From a virus: a stretch of DNA of 64,000 nt. The notes beneath the pieces were generated by a model. It was not told the origin of the DNA, made no database searches, and worked only from the letters and a program-made list of their open reading frames with translations. How positions within the stretch are numbered: position 1 is the first letter of the stretch; each line of letters opens with the position of its first letter. The position numbers and the translations under genes were made by a program. Shown piece by piece: positions 17,777 through 54,979 of this stretch. The stretch spans positions 64,001-128,000 of IMG/VR virus record IMGVR_UViG_3300036790_000419. The stretch is one strand, 5' to 3'.

Positions 17777-17929
17777 ATGGACCTGCCCGACGATGAGAAG
17801 CAGGGCCTGGGCGAATGGGAGCTGGACTGCGCGGCCCGGCTGCAGTCCGAGTACGGCGTCAGTTACGGCAAGGGCTGGGTGCGCCTGACGACAGAGCCCG
17901 GCTGCCCGCATCACGGGGCGCCCGATTAG
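17777..17929 (+). CDS. 50-aa hypothetical protein
   Basis: MDLPDDEK...GCPHHGAPD; fills gap. Confidence 0.45.
   Translation: MDLPDDEKQGLGEWELDCAARLQSEYGVSYGKGWVRLTTEPGCPHHGAPD
17922..17928 (+). promoter_or_regulatory. Late CCGATTA element, leaderless
   Basis: 7 nt before GTG 17936. Confidence 0.7.
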
Positions 17930-17935
17930 AGGTGC

Positions 17936-18376
17936 GTGGCTAGCAACTGGGACAAGTTCGACGGGCTGTTCACCTGCCCGAAGAGCGTAGAGGACGGCGA
18001 CCTGCGCACCTCTTACGAGGAGTTCTACTCGACCGCGCGCGGCGAGTGCGAGGGCCTGGACATGTCGTCGGCACAGGTCATGCGCACCAGTGTGATGCTC
18101 AACTGGTTCTTCAAGCACCAGCAGACTTCCCGGCGCGGCTACGGCACCGACGACGGCTACCAGCACCCGGGCCAGGAGAAGGACGCGATCCTGGCCTGGG
18201 AGCAGATCGCCAAGACCTGGGACGACGTCCGGCTGAAGAGCCGCCGCGCCGACCCCGGCGGCATGGCCCCGGAGAAGGTCCGCGACGTCTTCCTGCTGGT
18301 GCTCAGCCAGGTGGAGGACCCTGGCCTGCGCGCCGTGCTGCAGGACAAGTTCGTTGAGGCGCTGAGCGGGGCCTGA
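17936..18376 (+). CDS. Hypothetical late protein (terminase small subunit candidate)
   Basis: Late motif, helical, upstream of terminase large subunit. Confidence 0.55.
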   Translation: MASNWDKFDGLFTCPKSVEDGDLRTSYEEFYSTARGECEGLDMSSAQVMRTSVMLNWFFKHQQTSRRGYGTDDGYQHPGQEKDAILAWEQIAKTWDDVRLKSRRADPGGMAPEKVRDVFLLVLSQVEDPGLRAVLQDKFVEALSGA

Positions 18377-18426
18377 TAGACAGCCGATCAGAGTACGTAT
18401 ACGTTGCCTGTACGTACTCTGATCGG
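18377..18426 (+). promoter_or_regulatory. sigA-type promoter flanked by a 16-bp perfect inverted repeat
   Basis: TAGACA-17-TACGTT; ccgatcagagtacgta (18384-18399) / tacgtactctgatcgg (18411-18426). Confidence 0.75.
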
Positions 18427-18434
18427 AGGCTGCT

Positions 18435-18839
18435 GTGTCCAACACCACCGTTTCCCTCCCGGACGACCTGCGCGGCTACGCCAGGGCTGCCGGGGTCAAC
18501 CTGTCCGGTCTGCTGCAGCAGGCCGTCCGCGCGCACCGGGCCGAGCACGACAGCCTGGAGGCGAAGTTCCGCGAGGAGCTGGAGAAGTACCGCAGCGACC
18601 CGGAGCGCCAGGCTGAGTTTGCGCGCCTTGGGGCAGGCAACGGGCTCGCCCAGTTCAGGCCGTGCCCGGCCTGCGGTACCGCGGTGGACGAGGCCGAGGG
18701 CTGCATGGCCATGTTCGAGCCGTACGACGCCGCTCCGGTGGCCTTGCTCGCGCACTACCCCGACGACATGCGCCGGGCGAACCTGCGGTACTGGGCGGAC
18801 AGCGGCTGCGCGGATGTCACCCTGGGCATGCCGGAGTAA
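18435..18839 (+). CDS. CcdA-like ribbon-helix-helix protein with C-terminal Cys domain
   Basis: TTVSLPDDL..YARAAGVNLSGLLQQAV; CPAC. Confidence 0.7.
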   Translation: MSNTTVSLPDDLRGYARAAGVNLSGLLQQAVRAHRAEHDSLEAKFREELEKYRSDPERQAEFARLGAGNGLAQFRPCPACGTAVDEAEGCMAMFEPYDAAPVALLAHYPDDMRRANLRYWADSGCADVTLGMPE

Positions 18840-18861
18840 GCCGCCGGGCGATTACCAGGGC

Positions 18862-20397
18862 ATGGCGGGAGCCCTGGAGCTGCTGGAGGCCGAGCACGAG
18901 ACGCGCGAGGCGCACGGGCACCTCATGCGCGAGTGCCCGTGGTACCAGCACGTCGCCAAGGGCGGCCGGGACCATCCTGACCTGCATTGCAGGCCCGCAA
19001 CAGGTGGTGAGGGCGGCGCGCTGGTCAAGTTCACCCCGCGCACCCCGGAGGCGTCCACGGTCGTCAAGCCGACGGTGCCCCCGGGCGGCCCCGGCCTGTT
19101 CCACATGAAGGGCCATCATCTTCCCGCCTACGTGGAGCACCTGTACCCGCACCTGGTAGCCAGGTACGGCAAGCAGGAGGCGTACAAAGTTGCCGTCGGG
19201 GTGGTCAAGAAATGGGCAGCGGGCGTCAACCCGGGCGGTAAGCGCCCGACGAAGACGCATCCCGATGTCCGGGCCGCCGCCGCGAAGAACGTGGCCGAGT
19301 GGGAGAAAGAGAAAGCCGAGGCGCACGAGCACCGTGCCGCCACCTCGGCCGTCGAGCTGGCGGTGGCGACCGCTCCGGGTGCGCGCCCGTTCCTCCTGCC
19401 GTCGCCACCTGGCGGACGGTATTCCCAGTACGGGATGTACCAGAACCCGGTGCAGGCCGTCAGTCCCAGCCCGCCGCTGCCGCCGGCCGTGACCCTGCCG
19501 ACCGCGGCCGAGGTGCGCGCGGTCATCCCGCTGGTGCCTGACTGCAGCGATGCCAGCCTGTCGGCGACCGCGCGCAAGTTCCTGGAGCAGGCCGCCTGGA
19601 AGCTGAACAAGGACGACCCGCTCGCGGCCCTCGCCGTGATGCGCAGCGCCGAGACGGCCCTGTACGCCGCGCACAAGGCCGACCAGGGGAACATGCTGCC
19701 CTCGGCTTACACCGCCAACGTGTTCACCCGCGTCCCGCCGGCCGCCCAGTCGTCGGCGACCACGGTGATGAAGCAGGGCTACGACAAGATGCTGGCGTGG
19801 CGGAAGGCGGAGCAGGCGCTGGGCGCGCTGTCCGACCGCATCCGCAAGCGGTACTTCCACGGTGTTTTCTCGGGCCCTTCGCAGATGGCCCGGATGACGG
19901 AGGGTGACATGAGCGCACTGGACAAGCTCGCGCTGGCCGTGGTGACGGGCAAGGACGTCTCCGAGCCCGCGGAGTCCGACACCTCGGGCGCGGCGCCGCT
20001 CATCCAGCCGCCCGAGGACCTGCTGAACATCACCGACCCGGACGCGTCGCGCGAGCTGGCCGCGCTGCCCGTGCTCGACAAGGCACGGGTGAGTGCCTAC
20101 CTGGCCAGGGCCCGGGACATGCGCCGCACCAACCCGGCCGGGGCCGCCCAGTCCGCGATGCGGGCCGCCATGGTCGCGAAGGAGTCCGGGGCGCACGACC
20201 TGGCCCGGCACATCCGCCACCACGTCCAGGCGCTGGCTGACACGGGCAACATGACCGTCACCGCGGACGCCGCCGGGCGGATGCAGGCCGGCGGGAAGGC
20301 CGTCAGCCCGCGTGACAGCCCGGGGCCGTCCTCCGACAACCCGAACGGCCCGGCGAAGCTGAGCGCGGTGGACGCGCTGCTCGCCGCTGCCCGGTAG
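18862..20397 (+). CDS. Hypothetical late (virion-associated?) protein
   Basis: gCGATTA-N7-ATG start; LPAYVEHL...VKKWAAG...HPDVRAAAAK. Confidence 0.7.
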   Translation: MAGALELLEAEHETREAHGHLMRECPWYQHVAKGGRDHPDLHCRPATGGEGGALVKFTPRTPEASTVVKPTVPPGGPGLFHMKGHHLPAYVEHLYPHLVARYGKQEAYKVAVGVVKKWAAGVNPGGKRPTKTHPDVRAAAAKNVAEWEKEKAEAHEHRAATSAVELAVATAPGARPFLLPSPPGGRYSQYGMYQNPVQAVSPSPPLPPAVTLPTAAEVRAVIPLVPDCSDASLSATARKFLEQAAWKLNKDDPLAALAVMRSAETALYAAHKADQGNMLPSAYTANVFTRVPPAAQSSATTVMKQGYDKMLAWRKAEQALGALSDRIRKRYFHGVFSGPSQMARMTEGDMSALDKLALAVVTGKDVSEPAESDTSGAAPLIQPPEDLLNITDPDASRELAALPVLDKARVSAYLARARDMRRTNPAGAAQSAMRAAMVAKESGAHDLARHIRHHVQALADTGNMTVTADAAGRMQAGGKAVSPRDSPGPSSDNPNGPAKLSAVDALLAAAR

Positions 20398-20440
20398 TCC
20401 GATTACCCGGAGCGGAATCCGCACGCTCCCGGGAGGCACG

Positions 20441-21253
20441 GTGTCACTGGATAAGATCCTCGCCCTGGCTGGGGCTGTCCCCGAGGCCCCGGACCTGGAC
20501 GCTGAGCTGCTGCTCGCTGTCCAGGTGGCGAGCGGGGAGCTGGCCCTGCTGCTGGCGTCCGATGACGACAGCGGCGATGAAGACCGAGGCCGCGGGGACA
20601 AGTCCGGCAAAGACGGCGACGACGAGGACAGCAGCGGCGGAGAGCATTCTGGCCACGCTACCTACAAGGCGATGGTCAAGAGGAACATCCCGCCGAAGAG
20701 GGCCGCGGCGATGTGCGCCAAGTCAGACAAGAACGTCAAGGCCTCCCAGCTGGCGAATTCGCTGGCGGTGCTGCTGGCCGGCGAGCCGGGCCGGGACATC
20801 TCGCTGGTCACCCTTACCCCGGACAGCGAGACCGCCGAAGGGCGCAAGAAGGCCGCCTCCTCCGGGCATGCCCTGGCCGACGGGTCATATCCAATAGAGG
20901 ACAAGAAGCACCTGCACTCGGCCGCGGTGCTCGCTGCTTCCGGGCACGGCAACGCCTCGGCCGCCAAGGCGCTGATCCGCAAGCGGGCCAGGGAGCTGGG
21001 GGTGGACGTGAACACGCTGCCCGGGTTCGGGGGGTCCGGCAAGGAGAACGACAAGGCCGCCGCGTCGATGGTGGCCCTGGCCAAGCAGGCGGGCGGCGGG
21101 GTCGCGATGCACCACGCGCCGATGACCGGCACCCACAGCCACGCGCACGCGGTCGGCGCGACGCACGAGCACGACCACCAGCACTTCGGCGACAACAACC
21201 ACAGCGGCGGCCCGCTGCACCGTCCGGGCTCCGAGCCGCGAAGGGACTGGTAA
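20441..21253 (+). CDS. Hypothetical late protein with DGSYPI domain and His-rich tail
   Basis: CCGATTA at 20399; SD gggagg. Confidence 0.75.
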   Translation: MSLDKILALAGAVPEAPDLDAELLLAVQVASGELALLLASDDDSGDEDRGRGDKSGKDGDDEDSSGGEHSGHATYKAMVKRNIPPKRAAAMCAKSDKNVKASQLANSLAVLLAGEPGRDISLVTLTPDSETAEGRKKAASSGHALADGSYPIEDKKHLHSAAVLAASGHGNASAAKALIRKRARELGVDVNTLPGFGGSGKENDKAAASMVALAKQAGGGVAMHHAPMTGTHSHAHAVGATHEHDHQHFGDNNHSGGPLHRPGSEPRRDW

Positions 21254-21255: not shown

Positions 21256-21438
21256 GTGTTCGGCTGGCTGTCCTCGCTGTTCTTCGCCATCGCGTTCATC
21301 CTGTACGCGGCCAAGGCCGGCACCTCGCTGCCCTGGACCCCGGAGGGCTTCACGATCCTCGGCCTGCTGTGCCTGGCCCTGCACGTGGCGTTCTGGTGGT
21401 ACCCGGTCGGCCGCCGCCCCGGGCCGCCGGTCGCGTGA
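21256..21438 (+). CDS. 60-aa two-TM membrane protein (holin candidate)
   Basis: Two hydrophobic segments, basic C-terminus. Confidence 0.65.
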   Translation: MFGWLSSLFFAIAFILYAAKAGTSLPWTPEGFTILGLLCLALHVAFWWYPVGRRPGPPVA

Positions 21439-23402
21439 CCGCCGCCGGCGCGGCTGCCGCGGCCCTGCTCGGGTCGTCCGGCGGCGCGGGCACGTCCGCT
21501 ACCGGGCCCGGCATCTTCGAGGAGGAGCCGGTCCCGCTTGACGTCTTCGTCCGGGACCGGGCCTACCTGGCCAACCCGCCGCTGAGCGAGGTCCAGTACG
21601 AGGCGGTCCGGCACGCTGAGCGGGTCTACTACCTGCCGACCTACGAGCTGCTGGCGGCCAGCGCCGACAAGGAGGTGAGGAACTACTGGTCGCAGCCGAC
21701 GCGCATGGTCAACTTCCTGGAGCTGGAGTGGGGGAAGGGCGGGGGCAAGGACCACACCTGCCGGATGATCGCCATGCGGGTCTGCTACCTGCTGCTGTGC
21801 CTGAAGTCCCCGCAGGATTACTACCAGATGCCCGAGCAGGATTCGATTCACGTCCTGAATGTCGCATCATCTTCGAAGCAGGCCCAGCGCGCGTTCTTCG
21901 CCCCCATGCGCCGCGCGGTGCAGCGGCCGGGCTGCTGGTTCCAGCGCAAGGCCGGCATCGACATCATCGACGCCGCCGCCCGCCAGCAGCGCGGCGCCCG
22001 CGGGGAGCGCACCGTCACGCTGCTGGACACCATCCGGTTCGAGCACAACATCGAGGCTGTCTCCGGCCACTCCGACGCCGACAGCCAGGAGGGGCTCAAC
22101 CTCATCCTCGGCATCGCCGACGAGATCGACGCGTTCCGCTCGGCCGCGGAGCTGGCTCGCAACGCCTCGGCCAAGCAGCGCGAGTCGTCCTCCTCGGCCG
22201 AGGCGATCCTCGACATGATCCGGACCAGTGCCACCACCCGGTTCCCGGAGACCTTCAAGAACGTGCACATCTCCTACCCGCGCTACCTGGGCAGCACCAT
22301 CCAGCAACTGGTCGCCAAGGGCAAGGCTGACAACGAGGCGCGCGGTGAGCGGAGCCGCTACTACGTGTCCGGCCCGCTGGCTACCTGGGAGGCCAATCCC
22401 CGCATCAGCGGGAAAGAGGCGTTCGCGGAGGACTACGAGAAGGACCCGGCGCTGGCCGAGGCGAAGTACGAGTGCAAGCCGCGCCGCGCGATTAACCCGT
22501 ACTTCGCCAACGAGGAGGCCATCCGCGACTGCCTGGTGGAGTACGCCCAGCCGCCGGTGAGCGTGGCCTACGTGCGCGAGGGCGCGACCTGGAGGCCGCT
22601 CTACACCTTCAGCCCCGGGTTCTTCCCGGTCAAGGGTGCCTTGTACGCCATGCACGCTGACCTGGCGGCCACCGGCGACCGGGCCGGCGTGACGATGGCG
22701 CACGTCAAGCGCTGGCAGGACCACGCCCTTGTCGGCTACGACGAGGAAGGCCTGGAGATCAAGGTCCAGGAGCGCCGCCCGGTGGTGAAAGCCGACTTCA
22801 CCATCAGCTACGAGGCGGACGCCGGCGCGAGGCCGCCGATGGAGATCCAGATTCGCTGGGCGAGGATGTTGTGCCTTGAGCTGCGCCGGATGGGATTTCC
22901 GGTAGTTTTCTTCTCATTCGATCAGTGGCAGTCAAAAGACTCCATGCAGATCCTGGAATCGCACGGAATAGAGACTGACCGGTTCTCCACCGACGTGTCC
23001 GAGGAGGGCTGGCGGACGCTGCGGGACGTCATGTACGAGGGCCGCCTGGAGATGCCCGCGCGCGAGCTGACCGTCATCGAGCTGCTCGGGCTGTCGCGGC
23101 TGCCGAACGGCAAGATCGACCACCTGGGTGACAGCTCCAAGGACGAGGCCGACTCCCTGGCCGGCGCGGTTTCCGGCGCGCTGAGGACCGGCGGCCAGGA
23201 GGACGCGAGCGGCAAGCGCGCCTACCCCGGCCAGGCCTCGTTCTACGGCCCGGCCGCTGAGATCCCCTCCCCGGCTGGAATGCCCGCGGCGATGTCAGTG
23301 CTCGGCCCGGATAACTTCATGCCGGCGGACCGCCCCGGCATGGAGTACGGCAGCAGCTACCTGGACGACTGGGGCTCGGCCAGCGGGGACTACCAGCAGT
23401 AA
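21435..23402 (+). CDS. terL: Terminase large subunit
   Basis: WGKGGGKD Walker A, IADEID Walker B, HADLA, SFDQWQS, KIDH...KDEADS. Confidence 0.9.
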   Translation: MTAAGAAAAALLGSSGGAGTSATGPGIFEEEPVPLDVFVRDRAYLANPPLSEVQYEAVRHAERVYYLPTYELLAASADKEVRNYWSQPTRMVNFLELEWGKGGGKDHTCRMIAMRVCYLLLCLKSPQDYYQMPEQDSIHVLNVASSSKQAQRAFFAPMRRAVQRPGCWFQRKAGIDIIDAAARQQRGARGERTVTLLDTIRFEHNIEAVSGHSDADSQEGLNLILGIADEIDAFRSAAELARNASAKQRESSSSAEAILDMIRTSATTRFPETFKNVHISYPRYLGSTIQQLVAKGKADNEARGERSRYYVSGPLATWEANPRISGKEAFAEDYEKDPALAEAKYECKPRRAINPYFANEEAIRDCLVEYAQPPVSVAYVREGATWRPLYTFSPGFFPVKGALYAMHADLAATGDRAGVTMAHVKRWQDHALVGYDEEGLEIKVQERRPVVKADFTISYEADAGARPPMEIQIRWARMLCLELRRMGFPVVFFSFDQWQSKDSMQILESHGIETDRFSTDVSEEGWRTLRDVMYEGRLEMPARELTVIELLGLSRLPNGKIDHLGDSSKDEADSLAGAVSGALRTGGQEDASGKRAYPGQASFYGPAAEIPSPAGMPAAMSVLGPDNFMPADRPGMEYGSSYLDDWGSASGDYQQ

Positions 23403-24357: not shown

Positions 24358-24430
24358 AGGGACGTAGTTCAGCGGCCAGAACGGCAGCTTCCAACACTGC
24401 GCGCCGGGGGTTCGAGTCCTCCCGTCCCTG
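24358..24430 (+). tRNA. tRNA-Trp(CCA)
   Basis: Cloverleaf, loop ttCCAac, C31:A39, G73. Confidence 0.8.
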
Positions 24431-24728
24431 CGACCGTCAGCAACGGCGAGAGCCCGCGCAGGCGCATGTCAATGCAGCTTGAGAACTCCACAGCGTGAGC
24501 ATCAGCGGCGGGCGCCATCCCGTCGCACATGACTGGCAGCCGGGTGCGCTCACACCGTGCCCGGCTGCCGATCAACGCCCGGTTCACGGCATGCCGTGAC
24601 GATGGGCAAGCACCGTGCCGTCCGCCGGCCTCCGGGCTCGCGTTCCACCGTAGGGGTGTGCGGCCTGGCTCCGGCCAGGTGGCGGCGGTACTTGGTGTCA
24701 AGAGTTTTTGCACGATATGCAAAGCAAT

Positions 24729-24801
24729 GGGGCCTTAGCTCAGCTGGTAGAGCATCTGCTCGGCAGACAGAAGGTCGGGGGTTCGATCCCCCCAGGCTCC
24801 A
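24729..24801 (+). tRNA. tRNA-Ala(GGC)
   Basis: G3:U70, loop tcGGCag (C33), C31:A39. Confidence 0.85.
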
Positions 24802-24803
24802 CA

Positions 24804-24874
24804 GCGGCGGGTTGCCGGTTCGAATCCGGTCCGGTCCACGCATGGGCTGGTAGCTCAAATGGACAGAGTGTCGC
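24804..24874 (+). ncRNA. Circularly permuted tRNA-like element (YrlA-like)
   Basis: T arm, then loop-closed acceptor helix, then D arm. Confidence 0.75.
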
Positions 24875-24878
24875 ATCT

Positions 24879-24951
24879 GGGGACGTAGCTCAGCTGGTAG
24901 AGCAGCCGCCTCGCAAGCGGCGTGTCGCGGGTTCGATTCCCGCCTTCTCCA
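24879..24951 (+). tRNA. tRNA-Ala(CGC)
   Basis: G3:U70, loop ctCGCaa. Confidence 0.9.
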
Positions 24952-25107
24952 CTTAGGGCACTACTGCCGCGCGTCGGCCGGCGCAAGGCGAGAGAGGGCA
25001 GCTGACCTCTCTGGTGCCTTACCGTTCACCCGTGCGGTAAAACCGGGGACCAGCGGAGCCGAATGTCCGGGGCACCGGGCTGAGGGTGGGGTAAGCCTCC
25101 GCAACAT

Positions 25108-25185
25108 CGGGGTGTGGCGCAGCTTGGCTAGCGCGCTACGTTCGGGACGTAGAGGTCGTGAGTTCAAATCTCACCACTCCGACCA
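25108..25185 (+). tRNA. tRNA-Pro(CGG)
   Basis: Loop ttCGGga, CCA encoded. Confidence 0.92.
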
Positions 25186-25245
25186 GGATCTCAATGGCTC
25201 AAGTGAGGCGGCAGTAAAGGGCCACGCCCTGCCGGAGATCCGTAA

Positions 25246-25317
25246 CGGGATGTAGTTCAGTGGAAGAGCGCCTGGTTTGGGACCAGGATGTCGCGGGTTC
25301 GAGCCCTGCCATCCCGA
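25246..25317 (+). tRNA. tRNA-Pro(TGG)
   Basis: Loop ttTGGga. Confidence 0.92.
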
Positions 25318-25319
25318 CT

Positions 25320-25390
25320 GCTGGTCAGAGCCGCGTGGCGTGCGGGCCCTTAGCGGGGCACTCAGGGTTCGAGTCCCTGCCTGGTCAGCC
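25320..25390 (+). ncRNA. Degenerate tRNA-like element with shrunken anticodon arm
   Basis: Long terminal helix gctggtcag/ctggtcagc, intact T arm caggg-ttcgagt-ccctg. Confidence 0.5.
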
Positions 25391-25466
25391 GCTCCGGTAA
25401 TAGGGACGCCAGCAGCGGACGCGCGCTGGCGGTCGGTGAAACCCCGTTGCGAATCCGGAGCACCCT

Positions 25467-25539
25467 GGGGCCTTAGCTCAGATGGCAGAGCGCCCGGTTG
25501 AAACCCGGAAGGTCGGAGTCTCGGAATCTCCAGGTCCCG
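25467..25539 (+). tRNA. tRNA-Phe(GAA), aberrant T loop
   Basis: Loop ttGAAac, C27:A43, T loop tctcggaat. Confidence 0.7.
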
Positions 25540-25553
25540 CGCAGTAACACAAT

Positions 25554-25626
25554 GGGGATGTGGCCGAACGGTTACAGGCACTTGCCTTCCAAGCAAGCTA
25601 CGCGGGTTCGACCCCCGTCATCCCCT
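25554..25626 (+). tRNA. tRNA-Gly(TCC)
   Basis: Loop ctTCCaa, U73. Confidence 0.9.
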
Positions 25627-25754
25627 CTGGTACGGGCCGGACTCATACTCCGGTTGCGTGCAAGTAACCGGTCCGCGGCTGTCGGGCTGCGGACCGGGAG
25701 CGCCTGGGCTGCCCGGAGGGGCCGACACCCTCTCCGGGGGCACCAGTACTCAAT

Positions 25755-25826
25755 GCGCCGCGAGCATGTACGGCTATGCAGCGGACTCTTAATCCACGGA
25801 ACGGGGTTCAAGTCCCTGGCGGCGCA
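25755..25826 (+). tRNA. tRNA-Lys(CTT)
   Basis: Loop ctCTTaa, C28:A42. Confidence 0.85.
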
Positions 25827-25870
25827 CTTCACCTGGCTTCGCCGATTTTCGGCAGAGTTCGGTGTTATTC

Positions 25871-25945
25871 GGGCGAGTAGAGCAACCTGGCAGACCCTCC
25901 GCTCCCAAAAAGCGGGATGTGCGGGTTCGAATCCCGCCTCGCCCA
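25871..25945 (+). tRNA. tRNA with CAA anticodon (Leu), short variable loop
   Basis: Loop ccCAAaa (C33), no variable arm. Confidence 0.7.
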
Positions 25946-26049
25946 CGCCGGCTGGCAAGGCCGTCCTGCGAATCCTTGCCCGGCCTCTCCTGTGGGGAGA
26001 GCAAAGGCCGTTACAGGAGGGGGAGAAAAGGCCCCTCCCGTCAATTCAG

Positions 26050-26122
26050 TGGGGTATGGCGCAATTGGCAGCGCAGGTGCGTCTGGTGCACAAGGTTCTA
26101 GGTTCGAGTCCTGGTACCCCAG
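26050..26122 (+). tRNA. tRNA-Gln(CTG)
   Basis: U1-A72, loop gtCTGgt. Confidence 0.88.
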
Positions 26123-26125
26123 CGA

Positions 26126-26198
26126 GCTGGAGAATGCGGGTTCGAATCCTGCCCGGCGAGAGAGATCTCGCCGGTGGCTTAATCGGCAAAGCGCCAGC
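26126..26198 (+). ncRNA. Circularly permuted tRNA-like element (YrlA-like)
   Basis: T arm, acceptor helix closed by GAGA tetraloop, D arm, gctgg/ccagc closing stem. Confidence 0.8.
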
Positions 26199-26234
26199 AA
26201 CCCCGGGCACGGACGGTATCCCGGCCCGGGGCCC

Positions 26235-26308
26235 GCCCTTGTAGCTCATCTGGCAAGAGCGCCCGCCCCGTAAGCGGAAGGTCCCGCGTTCGACTCGCGG
26301 CAAGGGCT
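26235..26308 (+). tRNA. tRNA-Thr(CGT)
   Basis: Loop ccCGTaa (C33), C27:A43. Confidence 0.85.
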
Positions 26309-26419
26309 CGTAGTGTCCCGCCGAAGGCGTCACAGGCCCTCATGCCGGCTCCGTTCCAGGTGCCGTGCGGGGTTCGAGTTCTGCTCGTTTCTCCCTCGAT
26401 CGCGCGTCGCGATCATTAT

Positions 26420-26493
26420 GCCCGGATAGCTCAGACGGCGAGAGCGTATCCCCGGTACGGATGAGGCCCCGAGTTCGATTCTCGGTCCGGGCT
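26420..26493 (+). tRNA. tRNA-Thr(GGT)
   Basis: Loop ccGGTac (C33). Confidence 0.85.
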
Positions 26494-26504
26494 CGCAAGT
26501 TCAC

Positions 26505-26578
26505 GCGGATGTAGCTCAGTTGGTTAGAGCGTGACGTTGCCAACGTCAAGGTCGCCGGTTCGAGTCCGGTTATCCGCT
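26505..26578 (+). tRNA. tRNA-Gly(GCC)
   Basis: Loop ttGCCaa. Confidence 0.93.
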
Positions 26579-26579
26579 C

Positions 26580-26662
26580 GGGTGAGTGGCGTAATGGCAG
26601 CCGCGCACGGTTCAGGCCCGTGTGTCCGCAAGGACGTGAGGGTTCAAGTCCCTCCTCGCCTA
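26580..26662 (+). tRNA. tRNA-Leu(CAG)
   Basis: Loop ttCAGgc, variable arm. Confidence 0.92.
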
Positions 26663-26772
26663 CTTCGAGGTTGTCCACCGTGGCCGCGGGCCGCTGCGCC
26701 TGCCGTGCGAGAGCACGGGTTCCAGGACGGCGGTTAGTTTCCCTGCTAGCGGGAGCGAACGGTGACCTACAC

Positions 26773-26856
26773 GGACGCGTGGCTCAGTGGCTACAGCAGC
26801 GCCCTGCTAAGGCGTACAGGGGTAACCCTGCGGAGGTTCGAGTCCTCCCGCGTCCG
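26773..26856 (+). tRNA. tRNA-Ser(GCT)
   Basis: Loop ctGCTaa, variable arm. Confidence 0.92.
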
Positions 26857-26941
26857 CTTCTGCGCCGGATACCAGCCGAGTCCGTCAGGTGGTGACGCAG
26901 GCGCAGTGCCCGTGGGGGACGGCAACCCGCGACGGGCGCCC

Positions 26942-27029
26942 GGAAGCGTAAGTCGAGCCGGCCTACCGACAGCGGTCCCGAAAACCGTGAGGGGTAACTC
27001 CCGTGTGGGTTCGAGTCCCACCGCTTCCT
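26942..27029 (+). tRNA. tRNA-Ser(CGA)
   Basis: Loop ccCGAaa (C33), variable arm. Confidence 0.85.
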
Positions 27030-27196
27030 CCGCACATGATTGAGGCGGCACCCACGGGCCGCTTGCGGGTACCGCCTCAATGTGTAATCAGCCAGGCTGG
27101 TGATCCAGTCCAGAAGGAAGGAACCACGTGCCTTTACGAGCAGCCTAGTTTACTGCTCGCGTTCGCAAGCATACGCACAGTCACAGTGATTGTCGA

Positions 27197-27273
27197 GGGC
27201 GGGTAGCTCAGCAGGTTGGAGCACTTCCCTGATAAGGAAGAGGCCGCTGGTTCGATCCCAGCCTCGCCCACCA
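27197..27273 (+). tRNA. tRNA-Ile(GAT)
   Basis: Loop ctGATaa, CCA encoded. Confidence 0.93.
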
Positions 27274-27274
27274 C

Positions 27275-27349
27275 GGCGGTATAGCTCAGCCGGTGAGAGC
27301 GCCCCGCTCATAACGGGAGAGGCCGGGGGTTCGAGCCCCTCTACCGCTA
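27275..27349 (+). tRNA. tRNA-Met/Ile2(CAT)
   Basis: Loop ctCATaa, C27:A43. Confidence 0.85.
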
Positions 27350-27350
27350 C

Positions 27351-27424
27351 GGGCCGCTAGCTCAACTGCGCAGAGCGGCTGACCTTTAATCAGCGGGTTC
27401 GGGGTTCGAGTCCCCGGCGGCCCA
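27351..27424 (+). tRNA. tRNA-Lys(TTT)
   Basis: Loop ccTTTaa (C33). Confidence 0.88.
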
Positions 27425-27432
27425 CTAGCCTG

Positions 27433-27588
27433 GTGCGCGTGAGGAACCTCGCGCTCCGGGCAGCTGAGCGCCTGCACGTCATCTTCGACGCCGTCCCGGT
27501 TTACGAGGACGAGCGGTGGTACAGGTACGGAGACTGGGGCTGCCGGGCGTCCAACTGGGTGCGCCGGCAGCGGAACAAGCGCCGGTAG
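27433..27588 (+). CDS. 51-aa protein inside the tRNA array
   Basis: Coding-like codons; stop overlaps 5' end of tRNA-Arg(TCT). Confidence 0.4.
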   Translation: MRVRNLALRAAERLHVIFDAVPVYEDERWYRYGDWGCRASNWVRRQRNKRR

Positions 27589-27655
27589 CTCAGTCGGACA
27601 GAGCAGGCGGCTTCTAACCGCCAGGCCGCGGGTTCGAGCCCCGCCTGGCGCACCA
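27579..27655 (+). tRNA. tRNA-Arg(TCT)
   Basis: Loop ctTCTaa, CCA encoded. Confidence 0.93.
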
Positions 27656-27658
27656 CAC

Positions 27659-28629: not shown

Positions 28630-28630
28630 T

Positions 28631-45721: not shown

Positions 45722-45861
45722 TGGTGCACCGCGGTATCCCTGAGCACGGTCCCTGGTGGAAGCTCGGCCGCGACCTGCTGTTCCTCATCATCGCCGCAGG
45801 CATCTTCGCCGCGCTGTTCATCCTCCTGAGCCTGGCCCTGCGCGGTACGGTCAACTGGTGA
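45721..45861 (+). CDS. 46-aa single-TM protein
   Basis: LLFLIIAAGIFAALFILLSLAL. Confidence 0.6.
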   Translation: MVHRGIPEHGPWWKLGRDLLFLIIAAGIFAALFILLSLALRGTVNW

Positions 45862-46127
45862 GTATCCCGTTCGACGCGGGCACCCGCCAGCGGGCGGCCC
45901 GGCTAGCCATTTACCTCTACTACCCGGACGGCTCATCGGCGGTGGCGGAGGGCACGGACCTGACGGTCGACTCCGAGTTCGACTACGGCGGGCGGGTGAC
46001 CGACATCCAGGCGGCACCGGAGCTGACGTCCCGGCTGACCCCGGCCATGCGCCTGCGCATCTACCCGGCACAGCCCGGCCGGGCCACGCTGCGGGTGACG
46101 AAGCGCCCTCCGATTAGCGAGACGTGA
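45858..46127 (+). CDS. Hypothetical protein
   Basis: GTGA overlaps. Confidence 0.6.
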   Translation: MSIPFDAGTRQRAARLAIYLYYPDGSSAVAEGTDLTVDSEFDYGGRVTDIQAAPELTSRLTPAMRLRIYPAQPGRATLRVTKRPPISET

Positions 46128-46618
46128 CCACGCCGCAGCCTTACCAGCCTTTCGCGCCTGGCCAGGGCCTGCGGATGTTCTATTCCTCGGTCTGCCAGGT
46201 GCTGCGCCTCAACCCCTCGCTCAGTGCGGGCGGCGGCATGTCATTCACCTGGGACCTGGTGAGCGACGTGGTGGACCACTACCTGAACGAGCCAGGCCTG
46301 CTGCAGTGCCGCCTTGACCTGACGTTCCTGCGCCCGGGCAAGGACCAGCCTGCCCCCGTCGTGGCCGGCCGCGCCCCGGACCGGACGGGCGTCTGCTACT
46401 TTGACCCCGCGCCCGACGCCAACGGCGCGTCGCTGGTCAAGGCGGGGGACCGGCTGCAGTGCGTGAGCGGCCCCGTCTTCGGGACATTTGAAATCAGGTT
46501 GATTCCAGATGTTGCACAAGGCTTGACCGGTGCACATCACATCGAAGTCCAAGTAGTGGAAGTCTCGCAGATGCTCAAGCCCGGCACATCGCCAACGCCG
46601 TTCGGCACTCCGGAGTGA
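46124..46618 (+). CDS. Head-tail stopper-like protein
   Basis: CRLD, KAGDRL, HHIEVQV; CCGATTA(46110)-N7-GTG. Confidence 0.7.
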   Translation: MTTPQPYQPFAPGQGLRMFYSSVCQVLRLNPSLSAGGGMSFTWDLVSDVVDHYLNEPGLLQCRLDLTFLRPGKDQPAPVVAGRAPDRTGVCYFDPAPDANGASLVKAGDRLQCVSGPVFGTFEIRLIPDVAQGLTGAHHIEVQVVEVSQMLKPGTSPTPFGTPE

Positions 46619-46621: not shown

Positions 46622-47050
46622 GTGGCTGAGTACTTCGCGGTCTACCTGGACGGCGCGGGCGGGGAGCTGGACCGCCTGGCGCGCGGCCCGGACGCCCGCA
46701 CCATCGCCGCGATGGAGGCGGCACTGCTGGAGGGCTACGCCATTACCGAGGGGCGCGTGCACGTCATCACCGGCGGCCTGCTGGAGTCCGGCCACCCGCA
46801 GTCGAGCTTCGACAGGTACACCTGGTCCGGGGAGATCGACTTCGCGCGGGACCCCGGCATCTTCGAGCTGGCGCGCGGCGACGCCCCGACGGAGCACCAC
46901 CCCGCGCCCGCGGGCCATTATTTCTTTGGCCCGGGCGGTCACGAGTTCGAGTCCGGCGTACGGCAGGCGTTCTGGGACTGGGTGACCGGCTACAAGGGCG
47001 GCAAGGCTCCCTCGGGCGGGCTGCCGTGGAAGTCCGGCGGCGACGATTAG
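46622..47050 (+). CDS. Tail completion/neck protein (HK97 gp10-like)
   Basis: VHVITG.L..SG; position. Confidence 0.6.
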   Translation: MAEYFAVYLDGAGGELDRLARGPDARTIAAMEAALLEGYAITEGRVHVITGGLLESGHPQSSFDRYTWSGEIDFARDPGIFELARGDAPTEHHPAPAGHYFFGPGGHEFESGVRQAFWDWVTGYKGGKAPSGGLPWKSGGDD

Positions 47051-47057
47051 CGCCGGC

Positions 47058-47237
47058 ATGGACAGTGATTCGACCGCGCACGCCGAGATCCGCGAGCTGG
47101 TCAGCCTGGAGGAGGCGGACGCCTTCGTGCTCGGCTGGAAAGAGCGCGTCTTCTACGAGCTGGACCAGATGCGGAAGCAGATGCCCTACGCGGACACGCT
47201 TGAGCTGCGCCTGACCAGCACGAGGCGGCCCGATTAA
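47058..47237 (+). CDS. 59-aa late protein (not in ORF track)
   Basis: aCGATTA-N8-ATG; MDSDSTAHAEIREL... Confidence 0.6.
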   Translation: MDSDSTAHAEIRELVSLEEADAFVLGWKERVFYELDQMRKQMPYADTLELRLTSTRRPD

Positions 47238-47243
47238 CCCGGC

Positions 47244-47765
47244 GTGGACGACGTAGCGACCGGGAGCGTCAAGTACCTGACCGGGTTCAGCGACGTCACC
47301 TCGCTGCTCGGCTCCTACCCGCCGACCGACCCGCCCGGCTTCGCGAACAAGCCGTGGCTGTTCAGCGACATGAACCAGGGCGTGCTCAAGGTCATGGAGG
47401 GCACCTCGGCCGCGGCCATCGTGTGCGCCGACTTCGGCGGCTGGGAGGTGCCGGTGCCCGGCTCCAGTGCCCGGTACCGGCGGCTGCGCACGGACATCTG
47501 GATCGACCCGCAGCGCGACGCGGGCCAGAACGTGACGGAGTCCTCCTCCGTCACCGCCAACCGGGGCATGGCGGTGTTCAACGCGGTCCAGCGCCGCCTC
47601 CACCGGCTCGACCCTGACGCGGTGCTCTGGGGCGACCTGTGCACCGTGGGCTGCCAGCTGCTCACCGAGCCTGTCTTCCAGCCGGTGACCGACGGCGATT
47701 ACCTGCTGCGCGGTACTGCCTACTTTGGGGTGGAGTACAGCGGCTGGACGGATGCGACCGAATAG
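47244..47765 (+). CDS. Tail terminator-like protein
   Basis: CCGATTA(47230)-N7-GTG; RLRTDIW.D; position. Confidence 0.65.
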   Translation: MDDVATGSVKYLTGFSDVTSLLGSYPPTDPPGFANKPWLFSDMNQGVLKVMEGTSAAAIVCADFGGWEVPVPGSSARYRRLRTDIWIDPQRDAGQNVTESSSVTANRGMAVFNAVQRRLHRLDPDAVLWGDLCTVGCQLLTEPVFQPVTDGDYLLRGTAYFGVEYSGWTDATE

Positions 47766-49813: not shown

Positions 49814-50077
49814 TTGGGCGGGATGAAGTTCACCCCGGCCGGGGTACACCGCGAGCCCCAGGGCGTGAAGCGGCCGGCTGAGTGGTACGTCGTCTGGCTG
49901 GGCCGGCCGCACGCCGAGGGCAGCGTCATCATCGGCCGGACCAGGCGGCTGCGGCGGCACCTGTGGCACCGCTGCTTCCCTGAGTCGGGCGGCGCGTGCC
50001 GCGACGTCAAGGGCCACACGGCGGGCGTCGAGTGGCTGCTGGAGATGTACCGGGCGGCCGTCCCGGCGCCCGATTAA
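49814..50077 (+). CDS. Hypothetical protein
   Basis: Fills gap; ends in PD* at a late motif. Confidence 0.5.
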   Translation: MGGMKFTPAGVHREPQGVKRPAEWYVVWLGRPHAEGSVIIGRTRRLRRHLWHRCFPESGGACRDVKGHTAGVEWLLEMYRAAVPAPD

Positions 50078-50083
50078 GCGGGC

Positions 50084-50668
50084 GTGCACCGTGCTCCCCC
50101 CGCTGGCTGGCCCGCTCCTGTCGTGATGGCTCAGCCGCGGCCCGGGGACTTCTGCTGCGTTCCCGTCAGCGGCCCGGTCGGCTTCAGCATCACCGTCGGG
50201 CAGTGGCTGGACGGCGACGCCTTCCAGTTCTACGACCACGCCGAGGTCTACGTGGGCAGGGCCGACAAGGCGGGCCCGTACGGCTACACGGTCAGCACCT
50301 ACCCCAGCGGGGGCGGCAAGCGCGCGCTGCCCTGCCCGCCGGCGAGGCTGCCGGGCTCCCTGTGGTCCAGCGGCCTGATCGACCTCACCGGCACCCAGCG
50401 GGTCGGCATCACCGGGTGGGCGCTCGCGCACCAGGGCACCGGTTACTCGTTCGCCGACTACGGCGCGCTGTTCCTGCGCATGATGCGCGTGCCGGCCCCG
50501 GGCCTGCGCGAGTACATCGCGAGCACGAGGCACCAGATCTGCTCGCAGTACACCGACGCGGCCTACCTGGCCAACGGCGTGCACCTGTTCGACGACGGGC
50601 GCTGGGAGGGCTATGTAAAGCCAGGTGACCTGGCACGGGTGCTGCAGGCCCGGATCCGGGTCGTCTAG
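50084..50668 (+). CDS. Permuted papain-like NlpC/P60 (YiiX-like) enzyme
   Basis: PGDF, DHAEVYVG, GT.YS, ICSQY; CCGATTA(50070)-N7-GTG. Confidence 0.75.
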   Translation: MHRAPPAGWPAPVVMAQPRPGDFCCVPVSGPVGFSITVGQWLDGDAFQFYDHAEVYVGRADKAGPYGYTVSTYPSGGGKRALPCPPARLPGSLWSSGLIDLTGTQRVGITGWALAHQGTGYSFADYGALFLRMMRVPAPGLREYIASTRHQICSQYTDAAYLANGVHLFDDGRWEGYVKPGDLARVLQARIRVV

Positions 50669-50826: not shown

Positions 50827-51507
50827 ATGCACGCACGCCTAGCGTCCCTTCTTCCGCCTGTCGCCTTGTCCGTCGCCGTCGCCGCGGCAGCACCCCTGGT
50901 CCCGCACCAGGCCGCAGTCGTCCCGGAGCCCGCCGTTGACGAGGCTCACGTTCAGCACGCCACCCTGGCCGTTCCCGCCGCGCACGTGCGCCGGGCGGCC
51001 CCGGGCACCTATACCGTCCGTGCCGGCGACACCCTGTCCGCCATCGCCGGCAGCCTCTGCGGCGACCCGGGCGACTACCTTGCCCTGGCCTACAACAACC
51101 AGGTCGCCAACCCTGACCTCATCTACGCCGGGCAGGTGTTCAGGGCGGCCTGCCAGGCTGCCGCGCAGGCCGTCGCCGGCCGGTACGCCCTGCCGCCTAG
51201 TTCGCCGCCCGCGCGCCGTTACACGGCCCCCGCCGCGCGGGCGACGGAGACCCTCGGGGCAGGCACCTACCACGGTGACAGCGGCATGCAGGCGTGCATC
51301 ATCGCCCGCGAGTCCGGCGGTAACAGCCAGGTGACGAACTCATCGGGCCACTACGGCCTTTACCAGTTCAGCGAGCAGACCTGGGCCGCGCACGGCGGCA
51401 ACCCAGCCGACTTCGGTCACGCTTCTATCGCGGAGCAGAACCAGGTGTACGCGCAGACAGTGCATGACGACGGGTACTCAGACTGGAGCCAGTACGACGG
51501 CTGCTAG
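50827..51507 (+). CDS. Secreted LysM plus Rpf-like lytic transglycosylase
   Basis: YTVRAGDTLS.IA, NPDLIY.GQ; CII.RESGGN...YGLYQF...TW. Confidence 0.88.
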   Translation: MHARLASLLPPVALSVAVAAAAPLVPHQAAVVPEPAVDEAHVQHATLAVPAAHVRRAAPGTYTVRAGDTLSAIAGSLCGDPGDYLALAYNNQVANPDLIYAGQVFRAACQAAAQAVAGRYALPPSSPPARRYTAPAARATETLGAGTYHGDSGMQACIIARESGGNSQVTNSSGHYGLYQFSEQTWAAHGGNPADFGHASIAEQNQVYAQTVHDDGYSDWSQYDGC

Positions 51508-51580
51508 CCGGCCTTTTCCTGACCCGATTAAGAGGGCGTCCCGGACTTCCCGGGACGCCCTTCGTCGTGCAGGAGGCGGC

Positions 51581-52378
51581 ATGCCGCGGCAGGCAGGCAA
51601 GTACGGACGTCTCCGGCCCGACCCGGGCCGGCCCAGGCTGATCCTGGAGAAGTACCTGGACCCGCGGGCCCCGCTGCAGCTGGCCGGCCTGCCCGCGGTC
51701 CCGCTGACCGAGGACGTGGACCGGGCCAGCGAGGTGACCAGCTGGCCCATGTACCTGAACGACCAGCTCGGGGACTGCACCATCGCCGCCGTCGGGCACA
51801 TGTACGGCGCCTGGACCCGCTACGCGGGCCGCACCGAGGCGCTGTTCGCCGACGGCCAGGTGCAGTCGGTGTACTCGCGGGTCGGCGGCTACGTGCCCGG
51901 CCAGCCCGACACCGACCAGGGATGCGTCATGCAGGACGTGCTGGCCGACCAGAAGTCCGTCGGCATGACCGACGCCGACGGCCGGGTGCACAAGGTCGCG
52001 GGCTACGCGGCGCTGGGCAACCCGCACGACGCCATGCTGCTCGGCCAGGTGCTGGAGGTGTTCGGCTCGGTCTACGTCGGCATCGAGGTCCAGCAGGAGA
52101 TGGAGACCGAGTTCGCGCAGGGCAAGCCCTGGAGCTGGAAGGCCGGCTCGGAGGTCATCGGCGGGCACGCGATCTGCCTGCAGCGCCGCCTGGGCAAGGG
52201 CGCCGCCCCGTACGAGTACGTCACCTGGGGCGCGCTGCAGCCGGCCACCAAGAAGTTCCAGGCCGACGCCGTCGAGGAGGCCTGGGCGGTGGTCACCGAG
52301 GACTGGCTGAACGACCAGAGCGTCACCGCCGAGGGCCTGGACCTGGACCAGCTGCTCGCCGACATGAGGCACGTCTGA
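51581..52378 (+). CDS. C1-like papain cysteine peptidase
   Basis: NDQLGDCTIAA, GGHAI, VTWG; CCGATTA at 51524, SD aggagg. Confidence 0.8.
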   Translation: MPRQAGKYGRLRPDPGRPRLILEKYLDPRAPLQLAGLPAVPLTEDVDRASEVTSWPMYLNDQLGDCTIAAVGHMYGAWTRYAGRTEALFADGQVQSVYSRVGGYVPGQPDTDQGCVMQDVLADQKSVGMTDADGRVHKVAGYAALGNPHDAMLLGQVLEVFGSVYVGIEVQQEMETEFAQGKPWSWKAGSEVIGGHAICLQRRLGKGAAPYEYVTWGALQPATKKFQADAVEEAWAVVTEDWLNDQSVTAEGLDLDQLLADMRHV

Positions 52379-53278: not shown

Positions 53279-53338
53279 GCTTCCGGCCTCGCCGATTAGA
53301 CGTGCGAAGACCACGGGCTACCGGGAGGTCGCGCGACC

Positions 53339-54001
53339 ATGCCTACCGCCAGCAACACTTTCGCGGGCACGCCGTTTGAGGGTTTCTCCCTCTCGCACGC
53401 GGCCATCCTCAACGGCAGCACCGGCGCTGAGGGCGCGACCGTTTACGGTGTCCGCAACGGCACCATCAGCACGGACCAGGGCAACTTTGAGAACACTGGT
53501 GACGACGTAGTTCTCAGTGAACATTTTTGGATCAACTTTGCGAATGTGACCATTGAGGAGGGCTACATCCCCTTCTCGACGATCGCGTACATCACCGGCA
53601 CGCAGGTCACCAGCTCGGGCGCGGCGGGCGCGGACTACTACGCCATCCCGCTGTGGACCCTGGCCTCCATGAACCAGGTCACCCAGCCGCTGGCCATCCG
53701 CGTGCCGTCCAAGGACGCCGGCGGACAGATCCGGACGCTGGACTTCATCCTGTACCGCGTGCAGTTCCAGCCGTTCAACTTCACGGGCCCCAGTTACAAA
53801 ACTGGCCTGAGCTGCAGCATCGCGGGCCGCGCGCTGTTCTCCACCGTCAACGAGATCGGCACCGCGCTGCCCTCCGCCTACGGTGGCACCTCCGGCTCGG
53901 CCGGCAACGCCATCGGCCGCCTGGTGTCCCTGCCCGGCACCGAGACCGGCGCGTTCGTACCCGAGCCGTTCCAGAGCACTGGCTCCGGGGGCATTGTCTA
54001 G
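53339..54001 (+). CDS. Major tail tube protein
   Basis: ENTGDD, FILYRVQF; upstream of chaperone; CCGATTA at 53292. Confidence 0.8.
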   Translation: MPTASNTFAGTPFEGFSLSHAAILNGSTGAEGATVYGVRNGTISTDQGNFENTGDDVVLSEHFWINFANVTIEEGYIPFSTIAYITGTQVTSSGAAGADYYAIPLWTLASMNQVTQPLAIRVPSKDAGGQIRTLDFILYRVQFQPFNFTGPSYKTGLSCSIAGRALFSTVNEIGTALPSAYGGTSGSAGNAIGRLVSLPGTETGAFVPEPFQSTGSGGIV

Positions 54002-54002
54002 C

Positions 54003-54671
54003 GTGGGCCATGACATCGTGGTGTCTTCGCTGGACGCCAATAAGGGCTACGCTCCGTATCCGGATACGCTCAGTACTTTTTCCACGGCTTCCGTGTCTGC
54101 TGATGCAGGAGACCTCCTGATCTTTTGGATAGCTTCGACGTCAGGCGGCGGTAACTCGTCCAGTATCTCGGGTATTTCCGGGCTGACCTGGGAGAAGCAG
54201 GCTGCGCGGTCGTCTGATCCTGGGGGCCAGAGCCTTCTAGAATGCTGGACCGCCGCTGTCCCTTCTGGTGGTGTGTCCGGGTCGTTGACCGTGGAGTTCG
54301 CTGTCGGGACGAGCCAGTACAACTACGACCTGGATGTGGCCGAGCATGTGTGTTACCTCGTACCCGTAGTCGCCGGTAACGTCCAGACGGCTAGCGAAAA
54401 CGGGAATCCCTCTTCGCTTACGTTCGACACTGCCGCAGACGTCGAGAACTTGTTCCTGTTCGGTTGCATGATCGAGTCCAACTCCGGTCAGACGCCTGAA
54501 GAGAGCCCGGCCTGGTCTGTTGTGGCCGATGTTTACCAAGTAGGTTCTTACACTCTTGGGCTGGAGACACAATTGTCGCCGGATGCCACTGATACCACGG
54601 CGTCTTCTTCGTGGTCTACGAATCCGGGCGACCGATGGGCCGGCATCGGCCTTGAGCTGGCGGCATGCTGA
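54003..54671 (+). CDS. Minor tail/accessory protein, lower GC
   Basis: AGDLLIF, GLTW; beta-rich. Confidence 0.6.
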   Translation: MGHDIVVSSLDANKGYAPYPDTLSTFSTASVSADAGDLLIFWIASTSGGGNSSSISGISGLTWEKQAARSSDPGGQSLLECWTAAVPSGGVSGSLTVEFAVGTSQYNYDLDVAEHVCYLVPVVAGNVQTASENGNPSSLTFDTAADVENLFLFGCMIESNSGQTPEESPAWSVVADVYQVGSYTLGLETQLSPDATDTTASSSWSTNPGDRWAGIGLELAAC

Positions 54672-54698
54672 ATGCGTGCAGATAGGGCGGGGCTGTAA

Positions 54699-54929
54699 GT
54701 GGCGGGCAAGCACCGCAAGAAGACCCGTGATGAGGTAGCAGCGGACGACCTTCTGGAAGTTGAGCCTCAGCCGGGCATCGCAGCCATGGCCCAAGGGTTG
54801 CCGGAGGCCGGGGTTAGCCCGGCTGAGGAGTCACCAGAGCAGCCGGACAACCTGGCCACCGGCGGCGAGGCCCTGGAAGAGCAGCAGCAGAACCCGGACC
54901 TGGACGACACCTCCGGGGCGCACCCGTAG
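54699..54929 (+). CDS. Acidic hypothetical protein
   Basis: 76-aa ORF. Confidence 0.5.
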   Translation: MAGKHRKKTRDEVAADDLLEVEPQPGIAAMAQGLPEAGVSPAEESPEQPDNLATGGEALEEQQQNPDLDDTSGAHP

Positions 54930-54979
54930 CCTGCGCCGATTGTCCCGGCATCTGATCCCGAGAGGCCCAGGAGGCCCGC

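Follow-up and report, generated by a model that had tools for sequence, protein, structure and literature searches.

The closest described counterpart of the element considered here, a seven-base box (CCGATTA) placed 7 nucleotides (nt) ahead of many virion-gene starts in an uncultured soil phage of about 149 kilobases (kb), is the promoter of sigma-28 (FliA/SigD/WhiG). The stretch analysed, called the window, comprises 64,000 nt, bases 64001–128000 of the 148,913-bp IMG/VR virus record IMGVR_UViG_3300036790_000419 (70% G+C; estimated completeness 98%); positions given without the word 'genome' are window coordinates. Similar to sigma-28 promoters, the box has the register of the -10 element GCCGATAA, from which it differs at one base, position -7 is unconserved, and a sigma factor of the phage retains the residues that read the -10 element. 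Unlike sigma-28 promoters, the phage sites have no -35 element of the TAAA or TCTAAAG type about 15 bp upstream, the residues reading the -35 are replaced, the phage itself encodes the sigma, whose score lies under the cut-off of its family, and the promoter is fused to the start codon. Sigma-28 is directed to flagellar or sporulation genes, whereas the box is directed to virion genes.

Other systems share single features with the box. Late promoters of phage T4 consist of a -10 element only (TATAAATA) and are read by the phage sigma gp55; however, gp55 is represented by region 2 only and needs gp33 and the sliding clamp (gp45), whereas the sigma found here is full-length and group-3-like, with regions 2, 3 and 4. 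T4 makes leadered late messages, whereas most box messages are predicted to be leaderless. In Cluster K mycobacteriophages, many start codons are preceded, at a short and constant distance, by the start-associated sequence (SAS), a conserved short motif, but it contains a Shine–Dalgarno (SD) sequence and acts within the mRNA, while the box lacks SD complementarity and also occurs far upstream of SD-led starts. Thermus phage P23-45, a relative of the two Thermus phages considered next, uses the host sigma-A together with small phage proteins, and we know of no sigma of its own. In the Thermus phages phiYS40 and Lalka27a, the initiator codon itself supplies the first base, A or G, of most phage transcripts, and late promoters are marked by a -10 element of their own; the authors suggest that a phage factor modifying the host polymerase serves the late promoters of Lalka27a (bioRxiv 10.64898/2026.04.20.719267). 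These phages differ from the one studied here in host phylum and in their motif, TAGGGT. The sigma-70-family proteins gp36 of phiEco32 and gp47 of Salmonella phage 7-11 bring the host core RNA polymerase (RNAP) to promoters of the middle and late classes, and the phiEco32 promoters consist of a single element (PMC8948821). Both belong to phages of enterobacterial hosts, their sigma lineages and motifs are unrelated to those described here, and promoter and start codon are not systematically fused. Accordingly, phage sigmas with single-element late promoters (phiEco32, PMC8948821) and leaderless phage transcripts (Thermus) are already known, while no description of a FliA-like phage sigma with a start-fused sigma-28-type box in actinophages was found in a limited literature search.

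In the window, the pattern CCGATWR-N7-RTG (W, A or T; R, purine; N7, any seven nt) has 12 matches, all on the + strand, which carries nearly all genes of the phage; 0.36 matches were expected, and none of 100 shuffles reached 12. An unbiased scan of the whole genome + strand, in which every 5-mer was scored at every fixed distance of 3–12 nt before RTG, placed CGATT at the top, with RTG at that exact distance after 16 of 52 copies (p = 2e-13). Bare CGATWR is not enriched (39 copies against 44 expected); the signal therefore lies in strand, position and spacing. Throughout the genome, boxes with an N7 start are confined to 81.9–140.2 kb, the late arm, where a box is found each 0.2–3 kb inside gene runs, with larger gaps around the tRNA block. 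Three further sites, at genome 129128, 130047 and 140230, lie past the range covered by the initial annotation, which had proposed the box as a late promoter. The strict geometry of the box, together with a FliA/WhiG-like sigma encoded by the phage itself, makes a one-element late promoter the most likely function, and we consider it probable that the box is the -10 element of such a promoter, used by core RNAP with the phage FliA-like sigma and followed by a transcription start 7 nt past the box.

For comparison, 57 related viral loci (691 kb in total) were retrieved with the portal protein; sigma genes were compared in nine large relatives, and the relatives G001, G004, G005 and G008 were used for the site-by-site comparison of boxes. 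Open reading frames (ORFs) were judged by G+C content at third codon positions (GC3), and the virion-module genes were identified by PHROG matches. All sites named in the initial annotation were found at their positions, including one with 8-nt spacing at 47043. Of its 13 sites with 7-nt spacing, the N7 codon opens a long high-GC3 ORF at 11; the ORF of another, at 34445, has low GC3 but is conserved.

All box-headed sites listed below are on the + strand. A CCGATTA box before GTG (17922–17938) heads gene 17936–18376, predicted to be leaderless, and is kept in G001, G008 and G004. The box GCGATTA before ATG (18848–18864) heads gene 18862–20397 (511 amino acids, aa), also predicted leaderless; at the orthologous start in G001 and G008, the box is absent and a TGATG stop–start overlap is present instead. 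CCGATTA before ATG was found at 30537–30553, for gene 30551–30850, and at 30853–30869, for the portal gene (30867–32465), both predicted to give leaderless messages. In about 20 loci orthologous to gene 30551, CGAT is located at the same distance within diverged flanks, while the portal start in some relatives has a perfect SD, GGAGGTGAT, in place of the box. Further boxes are CCGATTG before GTG (32747–32763; gene 32761–33219), CCGATTA before GTG (34445–34461; ORF 34459–34863), CCGATAA before ATG (35104–35120; head maturation protease gene, 35118–36233), CCGATAG before GTG (37604–37620; gene 37618–37959) and CCGATTG before ATG (40550–40566; gene 40564–41274). The ORF at the 34445 site has a GC3 of just 0.66, yet its box and start are kept in six relatives; the box of the protease gene is kept in about 30 orthologous loci. 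The remaining sites are CCGATTA before GTG at 46110–46126 (gene 46124–46618, whose start overlaps the stop of gene 45756–46127 as GTGA), ACGATTA-N8-ATG at 47043–47060 (small gene 47058–47237), and CCGATTA before GTG at 47230–47246 (gene 47244–47765) and 50070–50086 (gene 50084–50668).

The remaining site, at 43509 (CCGATTA, N7; 43509–43545), calls for a correction. There, the N7 ATG is out of frame and opens a 7-codon mini-ORF (43523–43546; MAFARLP), the TGA of which overlaps GTG 43543 (GTGA). This GTG is the probable real start of gene 43543–44121, since homology with relatives begins at it. Located at the predicted transcription start, the mini-ORF may be a leaderless upstream ORF coupled to GTG 43543.

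Pairing of the box-headed starts with the anti-SD is weak, the mean duplex energy being -4.5 kcal/mol for 16 box-headed starts vs -7.6 kcal/mol for 139 others (p = 4e-4), and from the geometry their transcripts are predicted to be leaderless. The box also supplies the stop of the upstream gene, as had been noted; its TAG or TAA ends a high-GC3 gene at five positions, 17927, 34450, 47048, 47235 and 50075, with the residues PD or DD before the stop (GAPD and YEPD at the first two, each through TAG; GGDD at 47048, likewise TAG). At 46115, a similar end with Ser-Asp before the stop is present, but its frame has low GC3, and the gene that really lies upstream stops at 46127.

At other sites the same box is followed by a leader with an SD, as the initial annotation had stated for the five sites at 20399, 38876, 51524, 53292 and 54936, all on the + strand. 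The box CCGATTA at 20399–20443 is followed by a predicted leader of about 28 nt with the SD GGGAGG and by GTG 20441, the start of gene 20441–21253 just ahead of the large terminase gene; this box is kept in G001 and G008. For the major capsid gene (38876–39004), the box CCGATTA, a predicted start at G 38890 and a leader of about 110 nt with the SD AAGGGGTGG were found. CCGATTA at 51524–51583 precedes a leader with the SD GCAGGAGG and ATG 51581, and CCGATTA at 53292–53341 precedes a leader with the SD GGGAGG and ATG 53339 of a 220-aa protein. The latter is a probable major tail protein, its gene being placed just ahead of those for the chaperone and the tape measure; G001, G008, G004 and G005 retain the box. 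The tail assembly chaperone gene (54980–55591) has the box CCGATTG, the SD CAGGAGG and ATG 54980 (54936–54982). A sixth leadered site, at genome 130047, has a good SD after it. The six boxes are located 35–115 nt ahead of SD-led starts, and those before the capsid, tail tube, chaperone, g20441, g51581 and g66096 genes are kept in G001, G004, G005 and G008, with varying distance to the start. The presence of the same box at variable distance before SD-led genes indicates a DNA signal rather than a ribosome signal and excludes a purely translational role. The genes for the major capsid protein, the major tail protein and the chaperone agree with the proposal that abundant proteins tend to use leadered messages, though they form a small sample.

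The start codon of the capsid gene is probably ATT 39002, with GTG 38993 as the alternative. Ahead of the conserved sequence PDISLLEP, relatives have ATG or GTG, while ATT is found here and in loci L016 and L052, and ATC in G001; each of these ATT or ATC codons is located 5–6 nt past an extended SD, and the in-frame GTG three codons upstream lies within the SD (38988–39004). In the capsid leader (38890–38960), the blocks GGCCAGCCA..GTGGC, GCGGCGCAGGCCGGGC and GTCGCTG are kept across distant relatives. The g51581 leader starts with a stem-loop (51537–51565), which relatives retain with altered sequence. Both leader elements may be 5' elements for stability or regulation. Terminator-like hairpins are located directly ahead of three boxes: a perfect GC-rich inverted repeat read from the sequence (30496–30528, + strand) immediately before the box at 30537; a hairpin of 10 pairs, 9 of them GC, with a T-rich tail (40511–40537, + strand), after the capsid unit and 13 nt ahead of the box at 40550; and a small T-run hairpin (51498–51513) before the g51581 box.

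In the 57 related loci, CGATWR-N7-RTG occurs 130 times in forward and 3 times in reverse orientation. At orthologous starts (portal, protease, g30551, g32761, g37618, g40564 and others), CGAT is fixed at -13 while the flanks have diverged, and the box itself ends in TT, TA, TC, AT or CA, depending on the relative. The 69 unique orthologous starts with CGAT at -13 average -4.2 kcal/mol in SD energy; 48 of them are ATG and 21 are GTG, and TTG is not used. In mycobacteria, a 5'-terminal ATG or GTG is necessary and sufficient for leaderless translation, while TTG fails (PMC4633059). The occurrence of only ATG and GTG after the box fits this rule. Among 16 orthologous starts without CGAT at -13, about half have the box one base farther off, and most of the remainder have either a TGATG overlap or a strong SD, reaching -22 kcal/mol with GGAGGTGAT; box and SD are thus alternatives at the same gene.

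Among the cultured phages of the phage collection, a single relative was found, the distantly related Microbacterium phage Magritte; the two share 74% DNA identity across part of the capsid gene. Its gp47 is a 31%-identical homolog of the FliA-like sigma and is encoded in the same helicase–DnaB context; gene 47 (OR553905.1 47155–47895) is annotated as 'DNA binding protein'. CGATWR-N7-RTG is not enriched in Magritte, because the Magritte box is CCGATAT. Three copies of CCGATATCCCTGAY are present in its late region, two of them exactly 7 nt ahead of ATG: one at the scaffolding-gene ATG and one at an ATG 21 nt inside annotated gene 9, while the third precedes the leadered gene 23. Gene 9 is annotated from GTG 5332, and CCGATAT-N7-ATG indicates ATG 5353 as its start (OR553905.1 5332–5353).

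Alignment of 22 sites, numbered on the assumption that +1 is the first base of the start codon and with CGAT invariant by selection, gave the consensus (G)CCGATTA, then four variable bases, then GGC. C at -14 was found in 18/22 sites, T at -9 in 20/22 and A at -8 in 17/22. Position -7 is not conserved (A 5, C 8, G 8, T 1), and the same is true of G001, G004 and G008. Downstream, C occupies -1 in 18/22 sites and positions -2 to -4 are mainly G. Five of the six leadered sites have C and a purine at the predicted -1 and +1 with no start codon at that place, a pattern typical of transcription starts rather than of translation starts. In the 22 sites, no informative column was found from -45 to -3 relative to the box, and no k-mer was enriched or shared in the -35 zone, in agreement with the earlier suggestion of a -10-only promoter.

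The sigma-28 -10 element of Pseudomonas aeruginosa is (-15)GCCGATAA(-8); A-11 is flipped out, and the base at -7 is neither flipped nor conserved (PMC12784957). Given the +1 assumed above, CCGATTA occupies -14 to -8 with its A at -11 and agrees with this element at 7 of 8 bases, in line with the sigma-28-like -10 proposed in the initial annotation. The register predicts a transcription start on the start codon. The box was rejected as a sigma-70 -10 element because T is lacking at -7.

A phage or host factor of the sigma-28 type had been predicted, and the phage does carry a gene of this kind. When all six frames of the genome were searched for sigma domains, two genes were detected, both outside the window. 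The first (genome 48292–48984; L002:1288–1980), 15 kb before the window, encodes a FliA/WhiG-like sigma with TIGR02479 FliA_WhiG as best family (E = 8e-25); residues 14–221 align to positions 2–219 of 224, covering regions 2, 3 and 4, while the SigB/F/G family gave just 28 bits. Its best solved relative is Escherichia coli FliA in the RNAP initiation complex (6PMI), followed by a 278-aa sigma chain (6PFV/6PFJ), which we take to be Streptomyces WhiG. Metagenomic homologs number 185 at E <= 1e-5, carry the JGI name FliA and are in many cases located on contigs of 100–155 kb. All seven -10-reading residues of P. aeruginosa FliA (Y76, R80, R82, D87, D93, R97, R104) are identical in the phage sigma in the HMMER alignment and are kept across the phage clade, with the exception of R80, replaced by Y in the G005/G009 lineage. 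The gene was found in 9/9 large relatives tested, with 47–83% identity. It is placed between genes for an SNF2 helicase and a DnaB helicase. In the SNF2-type helicase (genome 44083–46875; L107:584–3376), a LAGLIDADG domain occupies residues 300–355, possibly as part of an intein or of a homing endonuclease that was inserted there.

Genes outside the late arm appear to have other promoters. About 28 copies of the palindromic TTGACTCAAGTCAAG, with TAnnnT 17 bp past TTGACT, were found at genome 16–55071, each preceding a shared leader (AAGGGCAGGCAC); they resemble early promoters of the host type, and their -35 region is operator-like. The nearest one upstream of the FliA-like sigma gene is TTGACT...TAnnnT at genome 46880. 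One more TTGACTCAAGTCAAG-type copy is located at 24052, just ahead of the block of 33 tRNA genes (24358–29263), so the tRNAs would be early transcripts. A search for host-type sigma-70 promoters in the late region gave chance-level counts (1 vs 1.0 expected and 1 vs 0.8).

According to the mechanism proposed here, the message of the FliA-like sigma would be among the early ones, which host holoenzyme would make from the approximately 28 host-type promoters. This sigma, encoded in the early/replication module, would then take host core RNAP to the boxes, the A of CGAT at -11 being the base flipped out. At about two thirds of the sites, +1 would be the A or G of the start codon and the mRNA, having no leader, would be translated in the leaderless mode, efficient in actinobacteria; at the others (capsid, tail tube, chaperone and a few more), the same promoter would be followed by a leader of 30–110 nt with a strong SD. 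With early genes on host-type promoters and late genes on boxes, the early–late switch would be a change of sigma factor. The transcription start, the late timing and the assignment of the sigma to the box are inferred from the DNA. One search for sequencing runs containing window positions 30450–40449 listed none from RNA.

Several observations weigh against this mechanism. Bona fide sigma-28 needs a -35 element, which is absent here, and the phage sigma has D and R in place of S224 and Q228, the residues that read the -35. This replacement fits a promoter without a -35 element; taken together, the two facts also mean that a co-factor or another recruitment mode may be needed. The sigma scores 87.8 bits, against an NCBIfam FliA/WhiG cut-off of 189.6, and is thus a diverged relative, possibly with another specificity. 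Within the window, 11 more + strand copies of CGATWR have no obvious following start, 3 of them in the replication region before 17922 and 8 among late genes. A point in favour of the mechanism comes from G005, where R80 is replaced by Y and W94 by H in the sigma and the box prefers G over T at -9; this is suggestive of co-variation of sigma and box, though within one lineage.

If correct, the one-element promoter provides a testable promoter–sigma pair for a large, widespread, uncultured soil actinophage family of roughly 125–150 kb. It suggests that a sigma-28-type factor is able to work from the -10 element alone, and that systematic leaderless late expression extends from Thermus phages to actinobacteriophages. 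Since gene callers seeking an SD misplace box-headed starts, the finding also corrects gene starts in the family. One sigma and a 7-bp promoter giving leaderless messages form a compact orthogonal pair, which could serve for expression in high-GC actinomycetes.

The second sigma gene (genome 11274–11978) encodes a protein resembling sigmas of the extracytoplasmic function (ECF) type, a sigma-70-family member in which regions 2 and 4 are recognised. Another start-fused motif, CGTAGTA-N6-RTG, is present in the phage genome in four forward and no reverse copies (40281–40296 and 44904–44919 in the window; genome 33167 and 142378). Its forward/reverse counts are 5/1 in G001 and 10/0 in G008, and it never occurs in G004 or G005, in which the ECF-like sigma was not found by tblastn; the distribution of the motif thus tracks the presence of this sigma, and the two may form a second sigma–promoter pair giving leaderless messages. 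A broader scheme would be a two-sigma cascade in which all post-early classes are leaderless, the ECF-like sigma reading CGTAGTA-N6-start and a -35-independent FliA-like sigma reading CCGATTA-N7-start, while early genes use host promoters and one shared SD leader, temporal classes being split by both translation mode and promoter. We regard this cascade as doubtful; if it is true, the phage could throttle SD-dependent translation of early and host genes, with most late genes spared.

It is unlikely that the box is a promoter read by a sigma-28-type factor of the actinobacterial host (WhiG/FliA) rather than by the phage sigma. The 7/8 identity with the sigma-28 -10 consensus, in the same register, would suit such a factor equally, and Streptomyces-type hosts possess WhiG. 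However, the TAAA-type -35 that sigma-28 requires is absent, the phage has its own FliA-like sigma, kept in every large relative, and a lytic programme would be poorly served by host WhiG/FliA, whose activity is limited to developmental stages and kept in check by anti-sigma factors.

Action of the box on RNA has a smaller probability still, whether as a start-associated sequence recruiting the ribosome or a phage factor, or as an endoribonuclease site at which polycistronic RNA is trimmed to leaderless messages. The distance between box and start codon is indeed fixed at most sites, readthrough transcripts must exist because terminators are few, and start-associated sequences are known from Cluster K mycobacteriophages. 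Nevertheless, the box has no anti-SD complementarity and is also located 35–115 nt ahead of SD-led starts; in sequence and register, and in lacking T at -7, it is consistent with a sigma-28 -10 element, for which a matching sigma is encoded. As a substitute for the SD, the box was rejected.

Reading of the box by the ECF-like sigma is very unlikely. The protein has the regions 2 and 4 expected of a sigma-70-family member, but both G004 and G005, from which its gene is missing in the tblastn search, have box-headed starts, ECF -10 elements are typically of the CGT type, and the separate CGTAGTA motif tracks this sigma; the candidate was rejected since it is absent from relatives keeping the box. 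That the box is a by-product of composition or of coding constraint on PD or DD ends, with no regulatory role, has negligible probability: it overlaps the end of the upstream gene in five cases, but the excess of matches over expectation, the 130:3 strand ratio in relatives and its retention at intergenic and variable-distance sites amid diverged flanks all speak against this.

The virion module contains further genes. The large terminase gene (21369–23402) follows gene 20441–21253. The decoration protein gene (36262–36951), which has its own SD, follows the protease gene, and the major capsid gene occupies about 39000–40201. A gene for a tail-fibre-like protein (41280–42815) is located after gene 40564–41274, and the tape-measure gene starts at 56075, after the chaperone gene. 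Amid the late genes, an HNH endonuclease gene (44142–44924) has neither box nor SD ahead of it and looks like a mobile insertion. The ends of the record (genome 1–127 and 148736–148862) carry an identical 127-bp stretch, the right copy of which stops 51 bp short of the record end; this suggests a terminal repeat or the assembly of a circularly permuted genome.

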